From a virus (lineage: Duplodnaviria > Caudoviricetes): a stretch of DNA of 64,000 bases. Of the stretch, positions 17,403 to 17,948 are shown piece by piece; position 1 is the first letter of the stretch, and each line of letters opens with the position of its first letter. The stretch spans positions 32,001-96,000 of IMG/VR virus record IMGVR_UViG_3300028048_000085. One strand, written 5' to 3'. A program made the position numbers and the translations under genes. The notes beneath the pieces were generated by a model. That model worked only from the letters and a program-made list of their open reading frames with translations, searched no databases and was not told where the DNA came from.

Positions 17403-17948
17403 CTATAGCATTACACCTAGAAAACTCATCTTACGTCTGAATTCTCGATTTTCAAAATCACGAATCATCTTTCTGGCTTCTTTGACATTTCTCATCTTAT
17501 TTGCTTTTACAAAGATATCACGATTAGTCTCTAAGAACTTTACAATCGTATTAAGATCTTCGGTACTATTGAAAATCTTATACATTGTAACTGCAAATCC
17601 CTGATCACATTTACTTGTAGCAAAGTTAGATTTTGTAGAATAGTTTAAAACATTGATTGCAAAATAATGCTCCTTATCAATCATTGCTAAACATTGTTCC
17701 CTATTATTTGGTAAGATATAAGCATAAATAGAATCTCGGAATAGTCCAATTGGCACTCCAATCCATATAGGACCAGATTCTAATTCCACACTGATCATAT
17801 AGAAATTATGATCAAAAATCGTCATAACCAGTCGATCCTTATCTTCAGATAATCGTTCTATATCGATTTTTGCTTGCTCTCTTATCTCTTTTGATGCTCC
17901 TAACAAAGCATACTTTTTACATATTAACATAGATTTTTTCATACTCAT
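17403..17948 (-). CDS. Orphan 181-aa protein embedded in the dual-repeat array
   Basis: GAAAGG RBS, co-oriented with the array sense strand. Array units resume within ~10 nt of its stop codon. Basic C-terminus, no recognisable family. Confidence 0.7.
   Translation of the reverse strand: MSMKKSMLICKKYALLGASKEIREQAKIDIERLSEDKDRLVMTIFDHNFYMISVELESGPIWIGVPIGLFRDSIYAYILPNNREQCLAMIDKEHYFAINVLNYSTKSNFATSKCDQGFAVTMYKIFNSTEDLNTIVKFLETNRDIFVKANKMRNVKEARKMIRDFENREFRRKMSFLGVML

Follow-up and report, generated by a model that had tools for sequence, protein, structure and literature searches.

A lineage-restricted gene of no known family interrupts a large TIGR-type dual-repeat array in a phage genome

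P0001 is a genuine gene, adapted to its phage, which encodes a small basic protein of no known family, is restricted to one lineage and interrupts an array whose anatomy fits the TIGR dual-repeat type and which is a putative source of tigRNAs. The phage system belongs to the known TIGR-TasA kind: judged by sequence, its effector is not missing, since a TasA-type protein is encoded by the phage itself outside the DNA under study, and P0001 is not that protein, nor by its sequence any other Tas. On balance, P0001 is probably a lineage-specific early gene, a passenger that uses the transcription unit of the array and has no role in guide handling. The unusual feature of the locus is an array of ~77 units split by a tightly lodged non-tas gene, a case not described in Faure et al. 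2025 or Xu et al. 2026.

The stretch of DNA analysed here (the window, 64,000 nucleotides) comprises bases 32,001-96,000 of a 118,850-bp IMG/VR virus record. CheckV estimates the completeness of this record at 48%, which implies a genome of jumbo-phage size. Neighbouring genes in the window include a split family-B DNA polymerase, a phage multisubunit RNA polymerase beta-like gene and an HNH endonuclease. A blastn search of the region against GenBank phages returned no match. The features of the locus, in window coordinates, are as follows.

17403..17948, minus strand: orphan gene P0001, 181 aa, pI 9.2 (ORF call, codon usage, variants, homologue)
17949..17975, minus strand: 5' leader of P0001, with a degenerate edge repeat, AAAUGACUA, at 17975-17967 and an RBS-like GGAAAGG at 17963-17957 (sequence reading)
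17387..17402, minus strand: 3' trailer of P0001, 7 nt past the stop and then an edge-like repeat, AUUGAGUUA, at 17395-17387, where the array restarts
17996..19712, minus strand: promoter-proximal array block, ~47 units, TIGR-type dual-repeat (anchor spacing, logo, PWM)
16319..17395, minus strand: promoter-distal block of the same TIGR-type array, ~30 units (anchor spacing, logo, PWM)
19742..19784, minus strand: promoter-like sites aimed into the array, namely ATATACTATA-N4-TGA at 19742-19758 and a sigma70-like TTGACA-16-GATTAT at 19784-19757
15856..16233, minus strand: a further small gene without a family, 125 aa, past the array on the same strand
15816..15843, either strand: bidirectional terminator-like hairpin; on the minus strand, the first such site reached after the array
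14601-14617 (-), 19742-19758 (-), 19850-19866 (+), 31005, 33895, 49035, 56235, 61718 (+): copies of ATATACTATA-N4-TGA and near matches

That the ORF interrupts the array, as the original prediction held, is borne out. A PWM of the array unit finds no match of >=6 bits between 17380 and 18013, in an array of 3.4 kb, and on this ground we regard P0001 as a true interruption. The ribosome-binding site proposed for the gene also corresponds to a visible feature, the RBS-like GGAAAGG, which ends 8 nt ahead of the ATG. The distances first given between the ORF and the repeats on either side (~30 and ~10 nt) were roughly right: the edge repeat AAAUGACUA lies 18 nt before the ATG, and the edge-like AUUGAGUUA begins 7 nt beyond the TAG stop. 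In being flanked by a TIGR array at such short range (18 nt upstream, 7 nt downstream), P0001 displays one of the traits by which a tas gene is recognised. It is packed between edge-like repeats no less tightly than tas is in canonical array-tas-array loci, which is a point against its being a passenger.

The array spans 16319-19712 (3.4 kb), is AT-rich and has a unit of 36-37 nt. Its anchors give 66 strict matches, spaced 36-40 nt apart or at twice that distance where a unit is degenerate, and by this spacing the array holds ~77 units, ~30 to the left of P0001 and ~47 to the right. The logo reveals a dual-repeat unit, in which two conserved 9-10-mers are separated by variable stretches of 8-9 nt; in the putative RNA sense (window minus strand) it reads AAAYGARUYA (edge), spacer, AACAAHAUUA (loop), spacer. 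Edge and loop repeats share their terminal motifs, with 5' AA and 3' UYA/UUA ends in common. Dual-repeat TIGR arrays have been described as alternating edge and loop repeats of 8-12 nt with ~9-nt spacers, yielding 36-nt tigRNAs, and the ends of their two repeats covary because a symmetric Tas dimer binds both (Faure et al. 2025, PMC12045711). The unit has also been modelled as twice (3 + 9 + 2 + 4) nt (Xu et al. 2026, bioRxiv 10.64898/2026.09.09.750476).

The window array shares with the dual-repeat TIGR-TasA systems of these two studies the 36-37-nt unit, the alternating repeats of ~9-10 nt and the two ~9-nt spacers. A cognate, nuclease-free Tas is likewise present in the genome of the window phage (P0017, described below), and the tas genes of its relatives adjoin arrays of the same type. 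The differences are of size and content. Dual-repeat TIGR-TasA arrays usually have 5-15 units, against ~77 here, and although arrays split by a gene are common, the splitter in this case is a gene other than tas, without a Nop domain. The terminal motifs also differ from those of TasR arrays, which are UG and CCA rather than the AA and UUA of the window array. The exact array pattern, when run over viral contigs, gave single chance matches only. Readings of the repeats as iterons or a centromere, as a promoter array, as C/D-box sRNAs or as a protein sponge preceded the TIGR lead and were given up. With the dual spacers as queries, the phage genome itself contains 13 targets at <=2 mismatches, none of them in or near P0001, compared with 5-9 for shuffled spacers; as 13 matches are not clearly above the shuffled range, we rejected self-targeting as a signal. 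In one guide (16465-16500) both spacers match adjacent sites at genome position 65,258 (window 33,258) with one mismatch in 18 nt, a match that may be due to chance.

Pfam Nop (PF01798) has no match over the record, and because this search was blank a validated Tas sequence, SpTasH, was used as the query. SpTasH is the TasH of Salicola phage CGphi29 (NC_020844; named in PMC13421893), and its identity was confirmed against PDB 9W03 (E 1.4e-212). The search returned a single ORF, P0017, of 411 aa at genome 100,281-101,516 (+). Its gene lies 4.3 kb past the end of the window and 48.6 kb from the array, a separation that again sets this phage apart from the described dual-repeat TIGR-TasA systems. 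Around the GxGP helix-hairpin motif, P0017 has matches to TasR (entry 9mty) and TasH among PDB sequences, and its C-terminal Y..LEH..GH stretch aligns with the C-terminal loop of 9mty, the region of the dual-repeat Y/H processing dyad. It scores 138.7 bits on the NCBIfam model NF052498 'TIGR-Tas system RNA-guided endonuclease' (cut-off 100), and it is the sole match of the Tas HMM over the record. The structural model of P0017 has a pLDDT of 78, and all of its top ten Foldseek matches are TasH or TasR, at a probability of 1.00. As it carries no HNH or RuvC signal, we assign P0017 to the TasA type. More than 300 relatives were found, many on contigs of 200-300 kb. Read alone, the window is thus misleading, for the array seems to have no effector when TasA sits just beyond the window's edge.

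The standing of P0001 as a gene rests on several observations. Its in-frame codon-usage log-likelihood is -3.786, compared with -3.762 +/- 0.076 for 80 long phage ORFs, and the remaining five frames at the locus score -4.25 or worse; its GC3 is typical of the phage. Fifteen strain variants with 96-99% identity, from independent assemblies, are all intact. Some of these are annotated as 187 aa, six residues longer than the 181 aa given here. A one-base difference in the G run upstream of the ATG (17949-17975, minus strand) puts an upstream ATG in frame in some strains, and since this holds for some strains only, the six-residue extension is not conserved coding sequence. The true start is most likely the ATG at 17948. 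In the variant P0012 the read-through N-terminus translates the same upstream array unit as is found in the window, which means that the gene keeps its array position in at least one other strain. The retention of this unit in the P0012 strain could point to a functional coupling of gene and array, a second point against the passenger reading.

The family to which P0001 belongs is very small. An exhaustive HMMER scan of 1.84 billion representatives recovered its own 90% cluster and a sole distant homologue, P0016 (174 aa, 29% identity, full length, E 2.7e-9), and a word-indexed search of 5.8 billion proteins recovered the 90% cluster only. Comparison of P0001 with Pfam, PHROGs, NCBIfam and PADLOC gave nothing usable, and neither did the ESM Atlas; a profile search of PDB sequences gave 0 matches at E up to 10. 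No loci for P0001, P0016 or their alignment (A2) were found in viral, metagenome or genome contig collections or in GenBank phages, and a back-translated DNA pattern, run over metagenomes for P0001 strain DNA, gave 0 matches.

A family consisting of one 90% cluster and one distant protein is what might be expected if P0001 were no functional gene at all, that is, a chance or decaying frame, or one newly born from array sequence, and three AAGAUGA words that resemble the edge repeat do occur in its last ~30 codons. Even so, we consider this extremely improbable. The codon usage of the frame fits phage genes and that of the other frames is far worse, none of the 15 independently assembled variants is disrupted, a full-length homologue exists at 29% identity, the fold model is moderately confident, and the array-unit PWM has no match inside the ORF. 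The AAGAUGA words (Lys-Met codons) lie at 17420-17500 (minus strand), the last of them roughly in phase with the first unit past the stop. The K/R-rich tail of P0001 might derive from array sequence, an origin for which the PWM gives no match at the level of the unit.

Several lines of sequence evidence separate P0001 from the Tas proteins. It has no match to a Nop or IS110-C-terminal-like domain at E up to 0.1-1 (NCBIfam NF052498 TIGR_Tas_endo; Pfam PF01798 and PF02371), in searches for which P0017 of the same genome, with its 138.7 bits on NF052498, was the positive control. An hhalign comparison of the P0001 family (A2) with the Tas family of the phage (A3) gave a probability of 0.55% over 19 columns. 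The C-termini of P0001 and P0016, where a Y/H processing dyad would be sought, have no conserved Tyr or His. The fold matches listed for the P0001 model include no Tas chain, and as modelled the protein combines a sheet with helices, in contrast to the all-helical coiled-coil plus Nop architecture of Tas. The absence of Nop, RuvC and HNH noted in the original prediction is upheld in this way by Pfam, NCBIfam, PDB sequence search and hhalign. A complex prediction for TasA (A3) with P0001 (A2) scored 0.00, a result that counts neither way.

The AlphaFold2 model of P0001 is moderately confident (pLDDT 73.5, pTM 0.72). The chain opens with an N-terminal helix, continues with a sheet of six strands into which one helix is inserted, and closes with four C-terminal helices; the final helix is K/R-rich. 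The basic C-terminus seen from the outset has a net charge of +6 over residues 151-180 and is retained in P0016, where the equivalent segment has a net charge of +5. The basic pI and the conserved basic C-terminal helix are compatible with nucleic-acid binding. Fold comparison, which the original prediction had proposed as a check, gave weak matches only, PUR-like or p32-like and with Z <=4.2. The best structural match is to PURA (PUR repeat), with Z 4.2, rmsd 3.3 and 75 residues aligned, below the noise level of the tool (Z <5); chains of the p32 family reach Z 3-3.9 (3.9 for a p32 homologue, 106 residues), below the level at which the tool's scores count as meaningful. A wide structural search with a second look (VIA-align) gave a best Z of 4.0-4.2. 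Foldseek found no match for the model in PDB and BFVD at E <=0.001, with E-values of 0.06 or worse. As modelled, P0001 would share with the PUR repeat/Whirly-like and p32 (Mam33) folds a four-strand-plus-helix topology at residues 41-92 and a sheet flanked by N- and C-terminal helices. It differs from both in having no sequence signal to either, and from p32, which is strongly acidic, in being basic.

To place the locus among its relatives, 80 viral Tas loci were gathered with a Tas family alignment, and the SpTasH locus served as the positive control of the array detector. In most of the 80 loci an array with a ~36-nt period directly adjoins tas. One relative, a 99%-complete phage of 244 kb (L014), has a 2.6-kb array after tas and on the same strand, with repeats AAUGAAUYA ... 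AAUAUUA, of the type seen in the window array. The position of this array on the tas strand, with the same type of repeat, speaks for the minus strand as the one that gives the RNA of the window array. Homologues of P0001 or P0016 are absent from the five closest Tas-bearing phage records, two of which are >=98% complete, and from all 80 Tas loci. The search for homologues in other jumbo phages, suggested at the outset as a check on the partner idea, thus came back negative. The genes that neighbour the array in the window (125 aa, 74 aa, 162 aa and 380 aa) do not recur next to tas at other loci. All of these relatives are distant, with Tas identity <=61% and scrambled synteny.

No ORF of >=80 aa is lodged in any array of the six closest relatives. 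Locus L017 has two ordinary genes between a small tas-proximal array and its main array. Across the loci we counted 16 gaps between sub-arrays: tas itself occupies 9 of the 16, and the other 7 are empty or hold ORFs unrelated to P0001 and to one another. Unrelated ORFs in related arrays were the finding that the original prediction had named as telling against a partner role, and a DUF7831 protein and other ORFs do stand in such gaps. Protein-coding cargo within TIGR arrays may accordingly be recurrent yet heterogeneous. Two gaps, from unrelated Tas loci, are recorded here for reference: L025:11928-12989 holds the DUF7831 protein and a 213-aa ORF between two TIGR sub-arrays, and L050:11346-12548 holds a 400-aa ORF in the same position.

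These comparisons bear on whether P0001 might be a lineage-specific accessory of TIGR-TasA, a small nucleic-acid-binding protein that acts on pre-tigRNA, tigRNA or target DNA, or that modulates TasA, and that is embedded in the array so as to be co-expressed with the guides. Its location on the presumed RNA strand, with an edge-like repeat on either side, would suit such a role, as would its basic termini and the basic C-terminal helix kept in P0016. The four-strand-plus-helix topology of residues 41-92, with its weak PUR and p32 matches, points the same way, and TasA loci occasionally pair with another gene, the ParB-like tasParB (PMC12045711). We nonetheless think this role unlikely, given that P0001 is missing from all related Tas-bearing phages examined, that related arrays are uninterrupted or hold tas or unrelated ORFs, that the fold matches fall under the noise level of the tool (Z <5), and that there is no family signal of any kind.

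The comparison with tasParB is instructive in itself. The tasParB-tasA operons (PMC12045711 section 44) likewise have a second coding gene interleaved with TIGR arrays, and the arrays sometimes lie between both genes. The product of tasParB is ParB-like, whereas P0001 has no ParB match (Pfam, E up to 1; NCBIfam, E up to 0.1). Furthermore, tasParB is operonic with tasA and P0001 is not, and tasParB has been observed consistently whereas P0001 is not conserved across related loci.

The frequency with which tas lies between array blocks raises another explanation, under which the locus is a relic of an array-tas-array arrangement, with tas replaced by or swapped for an unrelated gene through recombination between edge repeats; the position of P0001 would then reflect history and not function. 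In 9 of 16 split arrays of other viral contigs tas stands between the blocks, and its packing there is just as tight as that of P0001. Duplicated units occur on both sides of the ORF (16717 and 18270; 16979 and 19666), which indicates that the two blocks are one evolving array, and small inverted copies of main-array units elsewhere in the genome indicate that array pieces move. On the other side, no remnant of tas flanks P0001, the Tas HMM matches the distant gene only, and the relatives are too diverged (Tas <=61% identity, scrambled synteny) for the event to be reconstructed. We regard such a history as distinctly improbable.

Taken together, the findings divide the two roles that the original prediction had offered for P0001. 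An RNA-binding or processing partner is not what the data favour: a bona fide TasA is encoded elsewhere, related Tas phages have no homologue of P0001, and related arrays do without it. Because this half of the proposal is without support, a passenger or cargo gene is the better reading, as had been allowed. Its capture by recombination between repeats would fit the edge-like repeats on either side.

As part of the passenger reading, P0001 would be transcribed with the array, and the layout of the locus is consistent with this. Where 0.85 copies of the motif ATATACTATA-N4-TGA would be expected, the window has 12; those that were compared with the ORF list lie between genes and are aimed at genes or at the array, and the motif looks like a class of phage promoter. 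The copy at 19742-19758 (minus strand) adjoins the sigma70-like site at 19784-19757, and both are aimed into the array. The sole minus-strand terminator-like site lies at 15841-15818, past the 125-aa gene at 15856-16233. From the promoter motifs and the single terminator we derive a likely transcription unit comprising promoter, 47 units, P0001, 30 units, the 125-aa gene and terminator. The location of P0001 on the transcribed strand and its co-transcription with the array, both part of the first description of the ORF, agree with these promoter-like sites, with the one terminator-like site and with the tas-strand array of the relative, as far as sequence layout can indicate.

We infer that P0001 is transcribed from the array promoter (~19742-19784, minus strand) within a long pre-tigRNA. 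Dual-repeat Tas proteins cleave inside edge repeats, and as P0001 is bracketed by edge-like repeats, release of its mRNA would be expected by analogy. If TasA cuts these repeats, an mRNA of ~580 nt would be freed, with ends near 17971 and 17391. The expression of P0001 would then follow that of the array, and its product would most likely serve some early phage function apart from guide-RNA handling, as a passenger or moron-like gene.

A bolder form of the accessory reading would make P0001 a lineage-specific TIGR-TasA accessory of a kind not seen before: its mRNA would take the place of spacer-loop-spacer between two edge repeats, be excised by TasA processing and give rise to a small basic protein that acts on guides, TasA or DNA targets. 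This seems to us very doubtful; if true, it would be the first case of protein-coding cargo that depends on tigRNA maturation for its expression. Even as a passenger, P0001 offers a natural test of whether embedded mRNA is released by Tas-dependent cleavage of edge repeats, and of whether arrays serve as sites of cargo insertion.

Two further comparisons help to define a passenger gene of this kind. The layout of P0001 may be likened to the intragenic tigRNAs in tas (Xu et al. 2026), where guide units and coding sequence belong to a single transcript and closely adjoin each other. There, however, the units lie inside the tas frame, whereas here a non-tas frame lies inside the array and contains no unit. 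Phage morons and small early ORFan genes are likewise small, lineage-specific, inserted in a conserved element and absent from relatives, and they are expressed from a neighbouring promoter, as we propose for P0001. Morons stand between structural or lysogeny genes; P0001 differs in standing inside a guide-RNA array and in having no autonomous promoter/terminator pair.

TIGR-Tas systems were first described in 2025. Faure et al. 2025 (PMC12045711) and Xu et al. 2026 present them as built on one protein, with arrays that adjoin tas or lie within it and, occasionally, a ParB-like partner. In the layout of the present locus, by contrast, a very large array is remote from TasA and interrupted by a non-tas gene. 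Surveys confined to the surroundings of tas would miss both the window array and the gene embedded in it.

Smaller arrays are present elsewhere in the genome. An inverted mini-array of two units occupies window 57900-57990, with its motif on the minus strand, so that the RNA would be that of the plus strand. It is a near copy of units of the main array (95% over 41 nt to 16612-16652, 100% over 28 nt to 16721-16748 and 84% over 89 nt to 18213-18301); a small plus-strand gene (57600-57860) lies upstream of it, and a hairpin follows at ~58025-58070. The adjoining segment, window 58000-58866 (~860 nt), has no ORF of >=60 aa on either strand and holds a long hairpin. Further mini-arrays of 2-3 units, with the repeats of the main array and 36-nt spacing, are found at window 62640-62745 (motif on the minus strand) and at genome 104,213-104,249. 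The first of these sits between the convergent genes 62334-62606 (+) and 62814-63077 (-), by a hairpin at ~62745-62770, and the second lies outside the window, 2.7 kb downstream of tas. With the main array included, guides are scattered over at least four sites in the genome.
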